From: Candidatus Eiseniibacteriota bacterium
Lineage (GTDB): Bacteria > Eisenbacteria > RBG-16-71-46 > CAVPCR01
Assembly (NCBI GenBank): GCA_963823555.1
Contig: CAWGMA010000003.1
Location: 352,001-416,000 of the forward strand
Direction of reading: 5' to 3'
Length of the DNA: 64,000 nucleotides
The position numbers and the translations under genes were made by a program. The notes beneath the pieces were generated by a model that was not told where the DNA came from, made no database searches, and worked only from the letters and a program-made list of their open reading frames with translations. Below are positions 55,169-64,000 of the stretch, piece by piece (within the stretch, counting starts at the first letter, position 1; every line of letters starts with the position of its first letter).

Positions 55169-56583
55169 AACCCAGGGAACTGACGCGGGCGCTCCGCTTC
55201 TCGGTCCTCGACGGCTGCGCCTACTCCTTCATGGCCGGCGGGGCCGAGTCGTATCTGACGGCGTTCGCCGTCCACCTCGGCGTTCCGCCCTATCAGGTCG
55301 GGCTCCTGAGCTCCGTGCCGCAGCTTGTTGGAGCAGCTGCGCAATTATTGACGCCGTTCGGCGTGCGCCTGGTGCGCGGGCTCAAGCGCTGGGTGGTGGG
55401 CCTCGCCACCCTGCAGGCGCTCCTCCTGGCCTCGGTGGCGCTCGTGCCTCTCGTCTCCGGACCCGCATTCCCGCCGCTCCTCGTCCTCCTCACCGGCTAC
55501 TGGACCGTGGTGCTCGCCATCGGCCCGGCGTGGACGCACTGGATGGCGCTCCTCGTGCCCGCCGATCGACGCTCGACCTACTTCGCGCGGCGGAACCTCT
55601 GGGTGAACGTCTGCATGGTGGTCGCGCTCGCCGGCGGGGGCGTGGCCCTCGAGCGCGCCGCCCGCGCCGGTGCGGCCACCGCCGGCTTCGCCGGGCTCGT
55701 GATCTTCGGCGCCGCCATGCGCCTGGTCTCGGTGGTCTTCCTCTCGCTCCAGGCCGGACCGGCGGTCAAGGAACTCAAGCGCGCCGAGACCTTCGTCACC
55801 TTTCTCAAGAATCTGCGCCATAGGAGAGAAGTTCGCCTCCTGCCTTTCCTGTGGGCGATGAACTTCGGGGTCATGATCGCGGCTCCCTACTTCGTTCCCT
55901 ACATGCTCAAGGATCTCGGGCTCTCCTACTGGACCTTCATGGTGATCAACGCCACGGCGTTTCTCTCGAAGTCGCTGGCGATGGGGCTCTGGGGGCGGCT
56001 GGCGCGCCGCCTCGGCCCGCGCCGGGGCTTCGCGCTCGCCGCGCTCCTCATCTCGCCGGCCCCGGCGCTGTGGGCCCTCTCGAGCGAGCTACATCATCTC
56101 CTGGTCTTGCAGGTGTTCTCCGGGTTCGCCTGGGCCGGGTTCGAGCTCTGCCAGCTTCTCCTCTTCTATGAGTTCGTCGACGAGGACCGGCTCTCGGACG
56201 CCTTCAGCTATCACAGCCTGGTCAACGGTTTCGCCATGCTGGCCGGAACCGCGCTCGGGGGAATCTTCATCGCCCATCCGTTCCTGTTCCATAGCGGGTA
56301 TCACGAGGTCTTCGTGCTGTCGACGGCGGTGCGGATCTTCCCGATCATCACCATCTTCCCGACCTTGCGCGGGCTCGCCATCCGCCACGTGCGGCCGCCC
56401 GTGACGCGGGTGATGGGGCTCCGGCCCGGGCTCGGGAGCCTGACCGCGCCGTTCTGGTTCCTGACGACCGCCGGGGGGCGAGCGATCGAGCGGCGGCGGG
56501 CGCGCATCGCAGCCCGGCGGCGGGCCACGGAGGTCGATCCGGGTCGAGCTCCTGGCGAAACGGACGGTGACACAAAAGGTTGA
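55165..56583 (+). CDS. MFS transporter
   Basis: ~12 TM segments; WGRLARRLGPR loop motif. Confidence 0.85.
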   Translation: MKPRELTRALRFSVLDGCAYSFMAGGAESYLTAFAVHLGVPPYQVGLLSSVPQLVGAAAQLLTPFGVRLVRGLKRWVVGLATLQALLLASVALVPLVSGPAFPPLLVLLTGYWTVVLAIGPAWTHWMALLVPADRRSTYFARRNLWVNVCMVVALAGGGVALERAARAGAATAGFAGLVIFGAAMRLVSVVFLSLQAGPAVKELKRAETFVTFLKNLRHRREVRLLPFLWAMNFGVMIAAPYFVPYMLKDLGLSYWTFMVINATAFLSKSLAMGLWGRLARRLGPRRGFALAALLISPAPALWALSSELHHLLVLQVFSGFAWAGFELCQLLLFYEFVDEDRLSDAFSYHSLVNGFAMLAGTALGGIFIAHPFLFHSGYHEVFVLSTAVRIFPIITIFPTLRGLAIRHVRPPVTRVMGLRPGLGSLTAPFWFLTTAGGRAIERRRARIAARRRATEVDPGRAPGETDGDTKG

Positions 56584-56701
56584 GTCGTTGACGCAGGCGC
56601 AGCGCGGGCATACGATTTTCCTGTGTGGGGCCAGCATGGCCCTGGCGGCCGCGCCCGGCGGCGCGGCTGCCAACATCCCCGTGACGGAAGGGGAGTGCCC
56701 C

Positions 56702-57322
56702 ATGGCCGCGGATTCTGGGATCGCACCCAGCGCGGACTCGAACGGGGCCGCCGGGGTCACCGGCGGTGGGGCGTTGCTGCGCCCCGATGACATCCTTCGC
56801 CCCGCCGGCCCCGACGAGCGCTGGACCCTCCTCTACACGCGCTCCCGTTGCGAGAAGATCCTCGGTCGGGCCTGCGCCCGGCTCGGCATTCGCCATTATC
56901 TTCCGCTCCAGCCGCACTCGACCTTCACCGGACGGCGCCGTGTCTACGCGCTGCCGCTCTTTCCGAGCTATCTCTTCGCCTGCCTCGATGAACACGCGCG
57001 TCTCGACGTGCTGCAGACGAACGTCGTCGTGCATGTCTTCCGCGTCGACCGGCCGGATGTGATGCTCGATGAGCTGCGGCAGATCCGTCAGGCGCTCGCG
57101 GCAGGAGCAGAGCTGACGGTGGGTCCGGAGCTCGGGCGCGGCGATCTCGTGCGTGTCGTGCGCGGCCCGCTCGCCGGTCTCGAGGGATACGTGCTCATGC
57201 GGCGGCGGCGGGCCGGGTGCCCGCGCCTCGTGCTCAATGTCTCGATCCTCGGGCAATCGGCCGCGACCGAGATCGATCCGTTCGATGTGATTCGCGTCGC
57301 CGAGGGCGCGCGGGCCGCCTGA
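56702..57322 (+). CDS. NusG paralogue (UpxY/RfaH-like antiterminator)
   Basis: NGN domain WTLLYTRSRCEK...PLFPSYLF; KOW GDLVRVVRGPLAGLEG; start uncertain. Confidence 0.88.
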   Translation: MAADSGIAPSADSNGAAGVTGGGALLRPDDILRPAGPDERWTLLYTRSRCEKILGRACARLGIRHYLPLQPHSTFTGRRRVYALPLFPSYLFACLDEHARLDVLQTNVVVHVFRVDRPDVMLDELRQIRQALAAGAELTVGPELGRGDLVRVVRGPLAGLEGYVLMRRRRAGCPRLVLNVSILGQSAATEIDPFDVIRVAEGARAA

Positions 57323-58850
57323 GGAAGTGGAAATCGCCTGATGGAGAAGCCGCGGGCGTGAAGCGCCGCCCGCCCCGACCGTGAGTCCGTCCGGTCCTCC
57401 ATCCGGCCCGGTCCCCGGTAGCGGGCAGGTTCGGCCTGCCGGTGAAGGGGACGGAGTCCGCCCGGGGAGCGAGCGCTGGTCGATCGGTGGAGGCGGGCGC
57501 CGCGAGGGCCACCTCGGCGGATGGACGCAGGCGAACGACGCCGGCCGAGGTTTCGCCGAGACGAACGCGCACCGGGTCCGCGAGGGGATCGATGAACACG
57601 CGCCACAACCAGGCGCCGCGACGGCTCGGGTGGTTCAGGCGACGCTCGGCTTCGGCGACGGGGATCCCGAGGAGGCTGAGGTAGGGGCCGAGCGCCTCGC
57701 GATCCGGGATCTCGAGGATCTCCTCGACCGTGATCATGAGTTCCGCGGTGAGCGGTGGCGCGCCCTGGGGAGCGGTTGCGGTGGGCATGAGCAGGAAGTG
57801 ACGGGCGACGGGCATCGGTCGGGGAGCCGTGGCGATGAGGCCGCCCTTCCTGAGGAGCAGCCCCTCGCCGCGCGCACGGAGGGCCGCAATCGCCTCGGGA
57901 ATCTCGCGTAAGGCGTAGGTGACAAGGAGTCTCGGGCCGACGGGCTGGCCGGAAGGAGCGAGCGTGGGCGGGCTCGATGCGGGAGGCAGCATCGTGAGCG
58001 GGCTCGTCGCGAGCTCCGCTTGCGGCTTCGCGAGGTGCGTGTAGCGCGTGGTGGTGTTGACGCTCGTGTGACCGAGCAGCGCCTGGATGACACGGAGATT
58101 GGTGCCGGCCTCGAGGAGGTGGGTGGCGAAGCTGTGACGGAGGGTGTGTGGCGTGGCCCGGCCTTCGAGCCTGGCCTTGACGACCGCCGTCGTGAACGCG
58201 CGCTGCGCCGCCCGCTCGGTCAGGTGGCCGCGACGATGCGGGCGATCCGCGCGTCGCGCTCCCAGGAACAGCCACTCGGAGCCCGGGCGCCCGGCGGAGA
58301 TCCTGTCGAGGAGGGGAAAGAGGCAGGCCGGGAGCAGCGAGAAGCGATCCTTCCTGCCCTTCCCCTGGCGGACTCGGATCTGGCCGCGATCGGTGCTGAG
58401 ATCCGCGATGCGAAGACGAACCGCCTCACCGATCCGAAGTCCCGAAGCGTACATGATGCCGAAGAAGAGGCGGTAACGTGGATCCTCGAATGCGGCGAGC
58501 AGTCGGAGCACTTCATCCCTGGAGAGCACGTGCGGGGCGACACGCTTCTCGCGCATCGGAGGCAGGCTCCCTCCCAGTTCGCGGTTGAGCACCGAGCGAT
58601 AGGCGAAGCGAACCGCGTTCCGGGCGAGCCGCATCTTGCTGGAGCCGTCCTCGCTGGTGTTGGCCACGGCCAGCAGGTAGTCGCGGATGTCGTCCTCCGT
58701 CACATCCTCGGGCGCCTTGCCAAGCGAGCCGAGAAAACGGCGCAGTGAGCCGAGATAGGTCTTGATGGTCTTCCTGCTGAAGCGACGGAGGAGCATCTCG
58801 TCGCGGACCGCATCGAGGAAGGGTTGGAGTTCGGTCCTGGGCGCTCGCAC
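57234..58850 (-). CDS. Integron-associated tyrosine recombinase (IntI-like, lacking IntI insertion) with C-terminal DUF1802-like extension
   Basis: N-terminal SAM-like R.FS.KTIKTY; YASGLR, KGRKDR, HTLRHSFATHLL, LGH..TTTRYTH; divergent from the cassette array. Confidence 0.88.
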   Translation of the reverse strand: MRAPRTELQPFLDAVRDEMLLRRFSRKTIKTYLGSLRRFLGSLGKAPEDVTEDDIRDYLLAVANTSEDGSSKMRLARNAVRFAYRSVLNRELGGSLPPMREKRVAPHVLSRDEVLRLLAAFEDPRYRLFFGIMYASGLRIGEAVRLRIADLSTDRGQIRVRQGKGRKDRFSLLPACLFPLLDRISAGRPGSEWLFLGARRADRPHRRGHLTERAAQRAFTTAVVKARLEGRATPHTLRHSFATHLLEAGTNLRVIQALLGHTSVNTTTRYTHLAKPQAELATSPLTMLPPASSPPTLAPSGQPVGPRLLVTYALREIPEAIAALRARGEGLLLRKGGLIATAPRPMPVARHFLLMPTATAPQGAPPLTAELMITVEEILEIPDREALGPYLSLLGIPVAEAERRLNHPSRRGAWLWRVFIDPLADPVRVRLGETSAGVVRLRPSAEVALAAPASTDRPALAPRADSVPFTGRPNLPATGDRAGWRTGRTHGRGGRRFTPAASPSGDFHFLRRPARPRRRESHRTDRSRSRPIARGSRH

Positions 58851-59010
58851 GTTGGAGGCGGCGGAGCAAGCGGCGTGCCGGAAGGTGGCCCTTCCCTCCA
58901 GGCGGGGGCTGGCTTGCGAGTGGCGGGGATGGGAGTATCCTTGATAGGGGCGATTGGTTCACGGCCGGTCTCCCAGGCAACGCTGTTGCCGGTTCTGCAA
59001 CCTCCGTTCG

Positions 59011-59024
59011 CGAACCATGGTTCG
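59011..59024. promoter_or_regulatory. Palindrome CGAACCATGGTTCG, candidate LexA (GAAC-N4-GTTC) operator upstream of the integrase
   Basis: Perfect 14-bp palindrome 160 bp upstream of the integrase GTG. Confidence 0.5.
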
Positions 59025-59175
59025 TAGAGCCCGTTTCGGCAGCCCCTGGCAAAAGCGAACCGGCCGAAGCTTAGTGATTGGTTCGGAAGCGGTTGAGAGG
59101 AGTGGGCCGGACCTGCAGCAGTGCCCCAACAGTCGGCCTGAATGCCCTTCCTCAACCGACCTTCGCCAATGGGCA

Positions 59176-59182
59176 GTTAAGC
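59176..59182 (+). other. attI-like core site G/TTAAGC (first cassette junction)
   Basis: Cassette A starts here as in the other copies, but the upstream sequence is not the attC right arm. Confidence 0.75.
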
Positions 59183-59660
59183 GCAGCTACGGGTCTTCGT
59201 TGAGCGCCGTGCCATTGGGGCTTGGGAGAGGTTCCGGGCGCAGCGACGGGAGCTTCGTTGTGGCAAGAGAAGGGTCCATGAGTCCCGTTGCGAGGCTTGA
59301 TCGGGAGCGCTGCGAACGATCGCTCGCCGTCTGAAGCTCGTGCCGCCCGGGCTTGAGGCACGCGTTTTGGGCGGAGAGTGCGCTGGTGTAGCCAGCTCCC
59401 GCCGCTCGTGCTTCGGCGAGGAAGAAGTGGGGAGAGGTGTAACGGTAGGGGCGGAGTTCAGGAGAGCCGAGATTTCTGGGAGTTGTCGGGAGAGGGCGTC
59501 GTCGCTGCGCCTAACGCGCGGCTAGGCGGCTCCGCTCGCTGCGCTCGCTTCGCGCAACCCGGCGCTTTCCGTCACGGCGCTTGCCGTGACGGGCGCGCTG
59601 GAGTCGACCTTGCTGCGGCAAGCGCCGCGCCGGGCGCCGGGTTCGCCAGCCGCGGTATCG
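59177..59660 (+). mobile_element. Cassette 1: gene-less cassette A (full) plus attC
   Basis: 333 bp from core G to GCCTAAC; near-identical to copies at 60995, 61488 and 63842. Confidence 0.85.
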
Positions 59661-59666
59661 TTAAGC
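59509..59666 (+). repeat. attC-like site 1 (158 bp)
   Basis: GCCTAAC...CGCCAGCCGCGGTATC-GTTAAGC imperfect palindrome. Confidence 0.85.
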
Positions 59667-60064
59667 GCAGCTACGGGAGTCCCGTTGCGAGGCTTGATCG
59701 GGAGCGCTGCGAACGACCGCTCGCCGTCTGAAGCTCGTGCCGCCCGGGCTTGAGGCACGCGTTTTGGGCGGAGAGTGCGCTGGTGTAGCCAGCTCCCGCC
59801 GCTCGTGCTTCGGCGAGGAAGAAGTGGGGAGAGGTGTAACGGTAGGGGCGGAGTTCAGGAGAGCCGAGATTTCTGGGAGTTGTCGGGAGAGGGCGTCGTC
59901 GCTGCGCCTAACGCGCGGCTAGGCGGCTCCGCTCACTCGCTGCGCTCGCATCGCTTCGCCCAACCCGGTCGTCCGTCACGGCGCTTGCGGCCGGGGCGGG
60001 GTTGAGGTTCACCTTGCTGCGGCAAGCGCCGCGCCGGGCGCCGGGTTCGCCAGCCGCGGTATCG
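59661..60064 (+). mobile_element. Cassette 2: cassette A with 87-bp internal deletion plus attC
   Basis: ctacggg joined directly to agtcccg. Confidence 0.85.
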
Positions 60065-60070
60065 TTTTGC
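59906..60070 (+). repeat. attC-like site 2 (165 bp)
   Basis: GCCTAAC...GGTATC-GTTTTGC. Confidence 0.85.
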
Positions 60071-60154
60071 GGCAAGCGAGAGCAGACCATTCGCGAACAC
60101 TAAGAAGCACTACCAGCCAGCAGCGCAGCCTGCTGGGACCAGGGAGCACAGTCT

Positions 60155-60819
60155 GTGAGTAACTTGCCCGCACGTCGCGTGGCATCCTTGCCAGCCGCGA
60201 TCCTGCTCGTTGCGGTTGCCGGCTCTGCCCCAGCGCAGGACATTGTCATTGAGGCCGAGTTCTACCCGACCTGGGCCTGCTTCCCGACCAATGGCGCAGA
60301 GTCTCACCGTCCGATTCTCTGGCATCCTCGCTTACATCCACCGACCCCTTGCCGAAGTGCTCGCAGCATTCCCTGATGAGTGGGAGCGGGAAACCACGCA
60401 TCCGTGTTGGTCTGGATGTTCGACCGCCCGGTTTGCGGCTTCGCTTCGCCAACAGCACCTCCATATATCCCCCTTACATTCCAGGATACGTCGAGCGTCT
60501 GACGTTCGAGCCGCAACCTCCGGTCACAGTCGATTCCGTTCATGTGAATTGGTACCCCTTGCCAGGACAGGAGTCCCCTCCTTTCACGTTCTTTCCACCT
60601 TCATGCATGTTCGTCCTCGACGCTGATTCACAAGTCCTAGTCAATGCCGACGCCGTCATCAACTTGGTCGGAGTATACGCCTCTCTTGGCGGATACCATT
60701 GCTGTTTGGGGCTCGGAGGTGGGAATCTCCTGACGTTGCTCTCCATGACGAAGGCGTCACCATGCCTAATCGCAGTCGAGGAAGCCACGTGGGGGGCAAT
60801 CAAGGCCACATGGAAATGA
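60155..60819 (+). pseudogene. Cassette 3 (B): secreted protein ending in TWGAIK motif, apparently frameshifted
   Basis: Signal peptide in the 60155 frame; C-terminus VEEATWGAIKATWK in the 60349-60819 frame; lower GC. Confidence 0.6.
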
Positions 60820-60840
60820 TGATGTTGCCATTCGCTTGCC

Positions 60841-61000
60841 GCATAACACGCGGCCTGGCGGCTCCGCTCGCTGCGCTCGCTCCGCTGCAACCCGGCGCCT
60901 TCCGTCACGGCGCTTGCCGTGACGGGCAGCGCTGGAGGTTCCTCTTGCTGCGGCAAGCGCCGTGCCGGCGCCGGGTTCGCCAGCCGCGGTATCGTTAAGC
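60841..61000 (+). repeat. attC-like site 3 (160 bp)
   Basis: GCATAAC...GGTATC-GTTAAGC. Confidence 0.85.
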
Positions 61001-61487
61001 GCAGCTACGGGTCTTCGTTGAGCGCCGTGCCATTGGGGCTTGGGAGAGGTTCCGGGCGCAGCGACGGGAGCTTCGTTGTGGCAAGAGAAGGGTCCATGAG
61101 TCCCGTTGCGAGGCTTGATCGGGAGCGCTGCGAACGATCGCTCGCCGTCTGAAGCTCGTGCCGCCCGGGCTTGAGGCACGCGTTTTGGGCGGAGAGTGCG
61201 CTGGTGTAGCCAGCTCCCGCCGCTCGTGCTTCGGCGAGGAAGAAGTGGGGAGAGGTGTAACGGTAGGGGCGGAGTACAGGAGAGCCGAGATTTCTGGGAG
61301 TTGTCGGGAGAGGGCGTCGTCGCTGCGCCTAACGCGCGGCTAGGCGGCTCCGCTCACTCGCTGCGCTCGCATCGCTTCGCCCAACCCGGTCGTCCGTCAC
61401 GGCGCTTGCGGCCGGAGGCGGGGTTGAGGTTCGACCTTTCTGCGGCAAGCGCCGCGCCGGGCGCCGGGTTCGCCAGCCGCGGTATCG
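60995..61487 (+). mobile_element. Cassette 4: gene-less cassette A (full) plus attC
   Basis: Near-identical to cassette 1 body. Confidence 0.85.
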
Positions 61488-61493
61488 TTAAGC
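61327..61493 (+). repeat. attC-like site 4 (167 bp)
   Basis: GCCTAAC...GGTATC-GTTAAGC. Confidence 0.85.
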
Positions 61494-61980
61494 GCAGCTA
61501 CGGGTCTTCGTTGAGCGCCGTGCCATTGGGGCTTGGGAGAGGTTCCGGGCGCAGCGACGGGAGCTTCGTTGTGGCAAGAGAAGGGTCCATGAGTCCCGTT
61601 GCGAGGCTTGATCGGGAGCGCTGCGAACGACCGCTCGCCGTCTGAAGCTCGTGCCGCCCGGGCTTGAGGCACGCGTTTTGGGCGGAGAGTGCGCTGGTGT
61701 AGCCAGCTCCCGCCGCTCGTGCTTCGGCGAGGAAGAAGTGGGGAGAGGTGTAACGGTAGGGGCGGAGTTCAGGAGAGCCGAGATTTCTGGGAGTTGTCGG
61801 GAGAGGGCGTCGTCGCTGCGCCTAACGCGCGGCTAGGCGGCTCCGCTCACTCGCTGCGCTCGCATCGCTTCGCCCAACCCGGTCGTCCGTCACGGCGCTT
61901 GCGGCCGGAGGCGGGGTTGAGGTTCGACCTTTCTGCGGCAAGCGCCGCGCCGGGCGCCGGGTTCGCCAGCCGCGGTATCG
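61488..61980 (+). mobile_element. Cassette 5: gene-less cassette A (full) plus attC
   Basis: Tandem copy of cassette 4. Confidence 0.85.
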
Positions 61981-61986
61981 TTATGT
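61820..61986 (+). repeat. attC-like site 5 (167 bp)
   Basis: GCCTAAC...GGTATC-GTTATGT. Confidence 0.85.
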
Positions 61987-62024
61987 GCCCTGCACACCTG
62001 ACCATTGGGAGAAAGGGACTCGAC

Positions 62025-62732
62025 ATGAGGCCTCGCGCTAGCGCGCTCATCATCTCTATTCCTCTGCTTGTCTCGTTGGCGCTCTTCGTTCCCTCCTGCG
62101 GGGACGATGATGGCCCCGCGGCTCCCGATCTCGCCAGCGCTTACCTCATTCAAGCAACCCTCGTGCTCAGCACGGAAACTGCCACCGTCGCCGTCTCCCG
62201 CCTCGATGCCAGCGACCCTTCGGCTGCCACTGCTGTAGTCCTGCTCGATGGTCACGGCATGCAGCACTCGGCAAACAACACACCAGACCAGGCAACCTTC
62301 CTGTCGCAGGTTCCCACGAATCCCGGCCACGCCTACGCCTTTTCCGTCACCGTCGACGGCGTCAGCGCCTCAGGCACCCTCGCTACTCCTGATCAGCCAT
62401 GCACGGTTGCCATCACGCAACCGCCGCCTGGGAATCTGACGTTCTCGTCGGGCACCGATCTCGCTCTTCAATGGGAATACGTCGGCTCCGAACCAGGGGA
62501 GTTTGGCGTCTTTGGATCGAGTGTCGCCTTTCCCCCTCGCGTCTTCTCAGATACTCTACAGGCGAGTGCACGGTCGGCCGTTGTCGAGACATCGCAGTGG
62601 TCGCTCGCATCCCAGGTGTTCCTGCGAGTCACGGCCCGGACACGAGCGGAGATCTCCGGAGACCTTGCTGCCCCAACAAGCTCATCATTTGTTGACTTCG
62701 CTACATCGGAGGTCATTCTCACCCGTAGGTAG
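62025..62732 (+). CDS. Cassette 6 (C): hypothetical lipoprotein (235 aa)
   Basis: AAAGGGA RBS; MRPRASALIISIPLLVSLALFVPS-C lipobox-like; stop ~20 bp before attC. Confidence 0.8.
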   Translation: MRPRASALIISIPLLVSLALFVPSCGDDDGPAAPDLASAYLIQATLVLSTETATVAVSRLDASDPSAATAVVLLDGHGMQHSANNTPDQATFLSQVPTNPGHAYAFSVTVDGVSASGTLATPDQPCTVAITQPPPGNLTFSSGTDLALQWEYVGSEPGEFGVFGSSVAFPPRVFSDTLQASARSAVVETSQWSLASQVFLRVTARTRAEISGDLAAPTSSSFVDFATSEVILTRR

Positions 62733-62754
62733 CAGGTCCCCGCGAGTGCAGGGC

Positions 62755-62915
62755 ACATAACACGCGGCCTGGCGGCTCCGCTCGCTGCGCTCGCGTCGCC
62801 CAACCCGGCGCTTTCCGTCACGGCGCTTGCCGTGACGGGGCCGCGCTGGAGGTCCACTTTGCTGCGGCAAGCGCCGTGCCGGGCGCCGGGTTCGCCAGCC
62901 GCGGTATCGTTTTGC
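62755..62915 (+). repeat. attC-like site 6 (161 bp)
   Basis: ACATAAC...GGTATC-GTTTTGC. Confidence 0.85.
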
Positions 62916-62984
62916 GACGGGCGCGTACGGACCTCCATCTTAGCGCATGCGGCTAACACTCCTGTCGCAAGGAGGTGAGATACC

Positions 62985-63659
62985 TTGATCTTTGGCAGTA
63001 ATCTTGGTCTTGCCGGCGTGGCGTTGCTGGCGCTTAGCCTCACCATGCGAGTTGCCGAGGCAGTTGACAACGAGCCACCCACCTGCGATCACGGCGGACC
63101 CTACGAGTGCATTCCCCAGCACGCTGTGGAGTTTGATGGCCGTGGATCCTACGACCCCGACGGTGTCATCGTGAGCTACGTCTGGTCGTTTGGTGATGGG
63201 CACACCGCCACCGGCGCGCTGGTCACGCACAGATACGAGGTCGTCGGCTCCTTCACCGTCGCGCTTCTCGTCACGGATAATGATGACAACTTCAGCGTCT
63301 GCGAGACCATTGCCCGCATCGTCGAACCGTGCCCTGGCAATTGCCCCCCGATCTGCGACGCTGGTGGCCCTTACCACGGCATAGCTGGTGTCCCGATTCA
63401 ATTCGATGGGTCGGGCTCGCTCCCCGTCATCGCTTGCATCCCGCTGGTCCAATTCGCATGGACATTTGGAGACGGGGCGACCGCCGTCGGCCCGCAACCG
63501 CTGCGCACTTACACGACGCCCGGCGACTTCAATATCACGCTCACGATCGTGGACTCTGACGGAGCCACCTCATCCTGTTCCTCCGTCGCAGTGGTTGCGG
63601 AACCCTCTGGAGTCGACCCCACCACATGGGGACGCATCAAGAACACAGTCCTGGAATGA
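62985..63659 (+). CDS. Cassette 7 (D): secreted tandem-PKD-domain protein ending in TWGRIK motif
   Basis: AAGGAGGT RBS, TTG start, signal peptide; two FDG.GS...W.FGDG PKD repeats; VDPTTWGRIKNTVLE. Confidence 0.85.
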   Translation: MIFGSNLGLAGVALLALSLTMRVAEAVDNEPPTCDHGGPYECIPQHAVEFDGRGSYDPDGVIVSYVWSFGDGHTATGALVTHRYEVVGSFTVALLVTDNDDNFSVCETIARIVEPCPGNCPPICDAGGPYHGIAGVPIQFDGSGSLPVIACIPLVQFAWTFGDGATAVGPQPLRTYTTPGDFNITLTIVDSDGATSSCSSVAVVAEPSGVDPTTWGRIKNTVLE

Positions 63660-63689
63660 CCTTCACGGCAGGACTCTCCCGTGTCCGTC

Positions 63690-63847
63690 GCAAAACACGC
63701 GGCCGGCGGCTCCGCTCGCTGCGCTCGCTTCGCCTAACCCGGCGCTTTCCGTCACGGCGCTTGCAGTGACGGGCCGCGCTGGAGTCCATCTTGCTGCGGC
63801 AAGCGCCGTGCCCGGCGCCGGGTTCGCCAGCCGCGGTATCGTTAAGC
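63690..63847 (+). repeat. attC-like site 7 (158 bp)
   Basis: GCAAAAC...GGTATC-GTTAAGC. Confidence 0.85.
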
Positions 63848-64000
63848 GCAGCTACGGGTCTTCGTTGAGCGCCGTGCCATTGGGGCTTGGGAGAGGTTCC
63901 GGGCGCAGCGACGGGAGCTTCGTTGTGGCAAGAGAAGGGTCCATGAGTCCCGTTGCGAGGCTTGATCGGGAGCGCTGCGAACGACCGCTCGCCGTCTGAA
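63842..64000 (+). mobile_element. Cassette 8: gene-less cassette A (truncated by window end)
   Basis: Matches the first ~160 bp of cassette A. Confidence 0.85.

Follow-up and report, generated by a model that had tools for sequence, protein, structure and literature searches.

Classical attC sites, at which integron cassettes are recombined, have a spacer of 5/5. In addition to an unpaired spacer, extrahelical bases have been described as parts of these sites (10.1101/2024.04.09.588808), and the additional domain of the integrase IntI has been described as both defining and necessary (10.1101/2022.02.06.479319). The survey by Cury et al. (2016) found 50 recombinases without the intI_Cterm domain near attC sites, which were judged not to be IntI, and gives complete integrons as absent from Gram-positive genomes (PMC4889954). 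Weinberg et al. (2017) proposed the multistem DUF1874 motif as a possible unusual attC (PMC5737381). Here, we analyzed a window of 64,000 nucleotides (contig C3:352001-416000) from the 4.6-Mb, four-contig genome of a Candidatus Eiseniibacteriota bacterium (G000), and describe a chromosomal cassette array with an adjacent tyrosine recombinase that is related to IntI and lacks the IntI insertion. Coordinates without a contig name are those of the window. It is likely that this enzyme uses folded single strands to excise and insert cassettes at G|TT. The locus probably represents a second type of integron that has been overlooked, in a genome that also has a classical one. A published description of this recombinase-array family was not found in a literature search that left most subscription journals outside.

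The locus works like a sedentary chromosomal integron, outside the IntI family. As in such integrons, the recombinase gene is divergent, the attI ends in G|TT, the sites are homogeneous AAC...GTT palindromes, the cassettes are co-oriented and include toxin-antitoxin and gene-less members, and an attI-fused cassette scar is present. In contrast, the enzyme has a DUF1802-like tail and no IntI insertion, the sites carry side hairpins on the left arm, the two ends of a cassette are complementary over 13-16 bases, and, instead of the 5/5 spacer and the fixed extrahelical bases, there is an asymmetric spacer, whose 4-base bulge is conserved, together with an extra base that varies. The array resembles a cluster of attC sites lacking integron integrases (CALIN; PMC4889954) in that no IntI lies beside it, but a whole recombinase with its catalytic residues lies next to it together with an attI, and both are kept in two genomes. 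XerC/XerD and archaeal XerA share the insertion-free catalytic domain, whereas the sites here are long palindromes rather than dif. The DUF1874 motif is likewise a multistem motif in consecutive intergenic regions (PMC5737381); no integrase was seen with it there. Rfam has no family that matches the present sites, with nothing found in the window up to an E of 1, or the sites of eight relatives, whose loci matched tRNA only.

Geometry of the array sites

The original prediction had proposed seven related AAC...GTT palindromes separating eight cassettes, and this arrangement exceeds chance. The fold of site 6 had a z of -4.91, with 0 of 200 shuffles as good, and a profile of the seven window sites gave 22 matches in the whole genome, every one within a single array. 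The array passes the window edge and extends to C3:432860, comprising 22 sites over 21.7 kb, 15 of which lie beyond the window. While 21 of the sites are complete, measuring 158-175 bases including the boxes, site 18 is interrupted by an IS21 element inside its left arm (cassette 18, C3:425740-428310). The istB gene of this element is seemingly shortened, and 206 bases recur at C3:639081-639286.

Each site is ordered as an AAC/GTT stem plus one pair, four unpaired right-arm bases, a 5-bp stem, an extra base that varies in identity and place, and a 6-bp stem, followed by left-arm side hairpins and a terminal stem. Over the 21 complete sites, the excess of the right spacer over the left one is +4 in 18 and +3 in the other three. 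Across 20 sites, 95.7% of the cells in the 14 outer pairs are paired, compared with 26-50% when the pairing is slid. Thus, the sites have the AAC/GTT R box and a predicted hairpin fold, but not the symmetric spacer and fixed extrahelical bases of the classical geometry. As a control from the same genome, one site of the classical integron was resolved, and it has a 5/5 spacer with an extrahelical base. When a covariance model of the sites (R1) was run over 121 genomes sampled from the phylum, it matched its own genome alone and none of the 120 others. The site sequence is therefore restricted to the genus, and what is shared more widely is the geometry and not the sequence.

The recombinase and its relatives

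The recombinase gene lies on the minus strand (57234-58850, 538 aa) and encodes a core of residues 1-287 (57990-58850) followed by a DUF1802-like C-terminal domain (approximately residues 309-452; 57495-57926). The protein matched PF00589 (E 5e-41) as well as PF13495, and the full catalytic set of R139, K164, H235, R238, H261 and Y270 is present. Its score against the integron integrase family TIGR02249 was 208.9 bits, below the cut-off of 265, and the Xer families also fell below their cut-offs (TIGR02224, 144.5/335; TIGR02225, 138/330; NF040815, 171.8/220); no Xer family gave a score as high as that of the integron integrase family. VchIntIA (2a3v) was the best solved-structure match at E 2e-42, with 5hxy at E 5e-33. 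In the alignment with 2a3v, however, there is a gap of 36 residues, where 22 residues of the recombinase face 58. When the insertions of three IntI proteins were combined into a profile, the recombinase scored 0.0 bits against it and a held-out IntI 77.4 bits. The predicted model of the recombinase, which was computed from a 35-row alignment and has pLDDT values of mostly 83-98 in the core, shows a beta hairpin at residues 196-209 and no extra helix; a short basic insert at the hairpin region is confined to the recombinase and its two closest relatives. Because the IntI insertion and the classical attC geometry, two defining features, are both absent, the locus is not a member of the IntI family, and the earlier description of enzyme and sites as atypical was borne out. 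Two labels were considered and rejected for the locus as a whole: an ordinary integron, on the TIGR02249 score, the missing insertion and the +3/+4 geometry, and a pure CALIN, as a whole recombinase and an attI adjoin the array.

The only other genome of the same genus, G001, encodes an orthologous recombinase with 66% identity, and residues 309-452 of the tail are 55% identical between the two. The tail matches DUF1802 weakly (E 0.0017 and 6e-7), and that of G001 reached a summed 28.8 bits against a cut-off of 25. No free-standing homologue of the tail was found among the proteins of 79-252 aa searched, and those of 295-942 aa contained just two fused proteins. P0001, which is 70% identical to the recombinase, has no tail; the domain appears restricted to the genus. 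In many relatives of 360-420 aa (P0009, P0052, P0077 and others), a C-terminal tail is missing and an additional domain of approximately 80 residues is found at the N-terminus. In a FastTree phylogeny of 93 sequences, from which L020 was dropped, four IntI proteins formed one clade and the window enzyme formed a long branch with P0001 and P0002, each with a support of 1.0. Since the deep order of the tree is not settled, we claim no evolutionary direction.

To see how the geometry is distributed, the loci of the best 80 of at least 354 confirmed relatives were compared. Two or more +3/+4 sites lie downstream of the recombinase on its strand in 15 of these loci. Counted over all loci, 82 such sites were found downstream on the recombinase strand, compared with 3 on the opposite one; 5 and 13 were found upstream and 1 had the mirror geometry, while two shuffles of each locus together gave 23. 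The array-bearing relatives belong to Paenibacillaceae, other Bacillota (a Vallitaleaceae genome is among those whose sites were compared) and a spirochaete. Their stem sequences are unrelated, yet the +3/+4 offset is kept, and the sites span 66-186 bases between the AAC/GTT ends. In seven relatives' loci, the end of a cassette matched its own start better than the next one in 38 of 49 cassettes, and the reverse was never seen. A degenerate pattern for the relatives' sites matched one of five genomes, with 28 matches in that one. Considering that the enzyme does not score as IntI, that the sites depart from the classical spacer geometry, that cassettes behave as modules and that arrays with this geometry accompany relatives, the proposal of a distinct cassette-shuffling family is supported; the suggested search for co-occurrence with the recombinase clade gave no further array with the site-sequence model, and with the geometry it gave arrays at 15 of the 80 loci. 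In a Saccharibacillus genome (G062, locus L029), further site clusters lie away from the recombinase, at C1:3486525-3510035 and C1:382872-385864, with 20 and 3 exact pattern matches, respectively.

Cassette modules, the attI-like site and mechanism

As originally described, the minus-strand recombinase gene diverges from a G|TT junction, which lies 326 bases from the recombinase start. The junction belongs to an attI-like site on the plus strand (59160-59182, crossover G|TT with the G at 59176), of which about 15 bases are conserved in G001. The recombinase contig of G001 breaks exactly at the matching attI, and about 29 sites of the family stand at the start of a second contig; by inference, these two contigs belong together.

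When the reverse complement of each site's left flank was compared with cassette starts, the start of the same cassette matched at 10.6 of 13 positions beyond GTT, while the start of the next cassette matched at 6.7 and those of other cassettes at 6.1 (21 cassettes). After four duplicates were dropped and cassette 18 was added (n = 18), the mean was still 10.6, whereas the permuted pairings gave 6.6 +/- 0.4 and reached that mean in 0 of 100000 cases. In cassette 6 the complementarity extends to 16 of 16 bases, and G001 gave 10.5 for the own end against 6.6 for the next (23 cassettes, 6 skipped). Such complementarity is expected if each cassette once was a circle cut at G|TT. Comparison with G001 gave a similar picture. 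Cassette 13 (Fic/Doc) is 96% identical across its whole 754-base body to cassette 22 of G001, with different neighbours on both sides; cassettes 12 and 19 are also common to G001 at other places, and the order of the distal pair 21-22 is kept. This indirectly suggests that cassettes move as units, and the integron layout of attI and modular cassettes agrees with the original prediction. Another G001 region far from its array (L096:4042-5771; G001:C1 ~1378000-1379800) contains toxin-antitoxin cassettes together with two sites, of which one is whole and the other partial. The first half of cassette 16 is 79% like one of these cassettes, and the region would represent an insertion at a secondary site.

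Shuffling of repeats by homologous recombination, or mis-assembly, might also generate such an array, as the columns of the sites are 81% alike, site 1 looks chimeric, and several genes are split into two frames, as would occur with error-prone long reads. However, the exchange points are at G|TT and not within the shared site body, and the five copies of a single gene-less cassette (cassettes 1, 2, 4, 5 and 8; 99-100% identity) are told apart by single-base differences and, in cassette 2, by an 87-base deletion. In G001, a separate array occurs with a different gene-less cassette in multiple copies. Furthermore, contigs of other runs span the junction of attI and cassette 1, with 30 letters on one side, and in run X1 the depth of the gene-less cassette was 12.2 compared with 2.8-3.5 for pieces of the recombinase. 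We therefore regard this explanation as highly improbable.

A footprint of the attI-like site ties it to past events. Cassette 16 consists of two cassettes fused via the first one's own tail and the last six bases of attI (C3:424050). This pattern occurs three times genome-wide, two of which are attI itself and the cassette 16 junction. The classical attI of the same genome has a different end, unlike this junction. The same type of scar, in which attC is replaced by part of attI1, has been described in class 1 integrons (PMC4670013).

Based on these results, we propose a mechanism in which a cassette would leave as a circle, in which a long R stem would form again from its own two ends. The bottom strand would fold into the R stem, the 4-base bulge, an L stem of 5+6 bp, the side hairpins and the terminal stem, and the bulge would take the orienting role held in classical integrons by the extrahelical bases and the IntI insertion. 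A single strand would be exchanged, and replication would resolve the junction with a copy left behind, which fits the five copies of the gene-less cassette. New cassettes would enter at attI, so that old cassettes would lie far from it.

Several observations weigh against this mechanism. Covariation within the array is weak, with 2 of the 14 pairs changed on both sides, and the bottom-strand fold is only slightly favoured (18 of 21 sites; -54.2 vs -51.0 kcal/mol). Cassettes 15, 16 and 17 scored low in the own-end comparison (7, 4 and 4, respectively), which in cassette 16 is due to the fusion and in cassette 17 to a one-base offset. Neither an excised circle nor an attI with another cassette was found in the public runs, which offered short contigs only. 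A lone backward joint falls within similar sites, and a contig joined head to tail corresponds to the tandem cassettes 4 and 5, so neither shows excision; of the circles or re-ordered arrays that had been suggested as a check, only the re-ordering relative to G001 was seen. In the 93-sequence tree, the window enzyme has no supported place within the array branch of Bacillota. Fewer than two sites were found in 65 of the 80 relatives' loci, and while many of these contigs end early, several full-length flanks are without sites; therefore, only part of the recombinase family seems to run arrays. A set of 80 metagenome loci was near background, with 7 sites downstream on the same strand against 6 on the opposite strand, and small arrays were seen at L119 (downstream) and at L121 (divergent, as in the window). 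Lastly, a classical IntI is encoded in the source genome (462.9 bits) and in G001 (467.1 bits).

The small energy difference between the strands and the weak covariation would suit the same recombinase acting in Xer style on double-stranded sites, with the palindromes as binding sites or RNA-level elements, as would an enzyme without the insertion that has been described as necessary for integron recombination (10.1101/2022.02.06.479319). However, the stems are wholly different in the genus, Paenibacillaceae, the Vallitaleaceae genome and the spirochaete, yet pairing and offset are kept in each. Site lengths of 66-186 bases are also hard to fit with a fixed double-strand spacing, and G|TT is the sole common crossover homology. 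Recombination on double-stranded sites thus seems unlikely.

The presence of classical IntI in both genomes raises a further explanation, that this enzyme serves the array in trans, with the adjacent recombinase as a bystander or relic. In support of this, two of the classical attC sites share a terminal-stem motif with the long sites (28.5 and 20.1 bits), which is otherwise found only in the array. The inner half of the long sites thus looks related to the classical attC of the host. Recombinases without intI_Cterm near attC were also judged not to be IntI by Cury et al. (PMC4889954). The classical site, however, has a 5/5 spacer and an extrahelical base, whereas the window sites have an offset of +3/+4. 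Arrays of the same geometry occur in relatives without IntI, as no TIGR02249 match above cut-off was found in any of the 10 array-bearing genomes tested, which are of unstated completeness and, as kin, not independent. The neighbouring gene is whole, retains its catalytic residues and is conserved together with attI in two genomes, and the fused junction of cassette 16 carries the attI adjacent to the recombinase rather than the classical one. Accordingly, service by IntI in trans is quite unlikely, and recombination of folded single strands by the adjacent enzyme remains our preferred reading.

If the enzyme is active, cassettes would be shuffled independently of the IntI additional domain, a class with members in Bacillota would have escaped integron surveys, and the transition from Xer to IntI would be testable with natural enzymes. 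Since it contains both types of enzyme and both types of site, the genome is well suited to such tests. More tentatively, a widespread second integron class might exist in which an insertion-free enzyme acts on bulge-oriented single-stranded sites. The genus would then be a bridge with two orthogonal integrons that have the terminal stem in common and are flanked by NusG paralogues, the DUF1802-like tail replacing the IntI domain. If that were true, hairpin recombination would predate the IntI insertion.

Cargo and neighbouring genes

Only cassettes 3, 6 and 7 contain genes among the cassettes of the window. Cassettes 1 (59177-59660; a 339-base body and site 1 at 59509-59666), 2 (59661-60064; site 2 at 59906-60070), 4 (60995-61487; site 4 at 61327-61493), 5 (61488-61980; site 5 at 61820-61986) and 8 (63842-64000, the start of a cassette that is cut by the window edge) are the gene-less copies and have no credible open reading frame (ORF). 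All lie on the plus strand, as do cassettes 3, 6 and 7. Cassette 3 (60065-60994; site 3 at 60841-61000) encodes a likely secreted protein with a signal-peptide-like start and a TWGxIK tail, which is broken into two frames (60155-60819). Exported-protein genes are split in the same manner in cassettes 11 and 17, by decay or by assembly error. Cassette 6 (61981-62909; site 6 at 62755-62915) has a lipoprotein-like ORF of 235 aa (62025-62732) without a Pfam match above cut-off, and cassette 7 (62910-63841; site 7 at 63690-63847) encodes a protein with two PKD domains and a TWGxIK tail (62985-63659). The prediction that all cassette ORFs are on the plus strand therefore applies to cassettes 3, 6 and 7, while five window cassettes are without genes and cassette 18, beyond the window, carries a gene pair on the minus strand.

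Beyond the window, eight cassettes are of toxin-antitoxin type: 12 (DUF6883/DUF4926), 13 (Fic), 15 (DUF4258), 16 (HigB/HTH), 18 (MazE/PIN), 19 (DUF4160/DUF2442), 20 (DUF433/DUF5615) and 22 (DUF4258/DUF2283), where we take the DUF pairs to be toxin-antitoxin pairs. The remaining gene cassettes encode likely exported proteins (PKD, beta-helix, FlgD-Ig and NHL). Ordinary chromosomal integrons likewise contain toxin-antitoxin-type cassettes, of which there are eight here, and gene-less ones, so the cargo is less unusual than had been proposed. The TWGxIK tail ends 4 of the 22 cassettes, and a (T/S)WGx(I/V/L)K tail, presumably a sorting signal of the lineage, ends 104 reading frames genome-wide. 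As the tail is common throughout the genome, the cargo looks host-derived.

Gene-less cassettes can serve as promoters (PMC6557892). A consensus promoter was not found in the gene-less cassette, and a scan of 58800-60200 for the sigma-70 consensus gave no match, where none is expected by chance either. The gene-less cassette family of G001 showed no significant blastn match to the present one and no conserved frame; MAFFT aligned the two loosely, and we do not claim homology.

The classical integron of the source genome lies at C3:8500-16235 (L099), with intI at C3:15024-16235 co-oriented with cassettes that have short attC sites. The genome also has its own XerC and XerD elsewhere. A NusG/UpxY/RfaH-like antiterminator gene (56567-57322), a possible accessory, is on the plus strand as are the cassettes. 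In both genomes, a NusG/UpxY-like gene adjoins the insertion-less recombinase and the classical intI on the cassette strand. The paralogue beside the classical intI (C3:16293-17075) is 56% identical, and these two genes are the sole matches of the window protein in the source genome; the counterparts in G001 are at L097 and L110. The antiterminator may help transcription to run through the arrays. Past the last site, four co-oriented genes of exported type follow without sites (L002:6882-10285; C3:432882-436285), three of which have a TWG tail, and they are perhaps old cassettes that have lost their sites.

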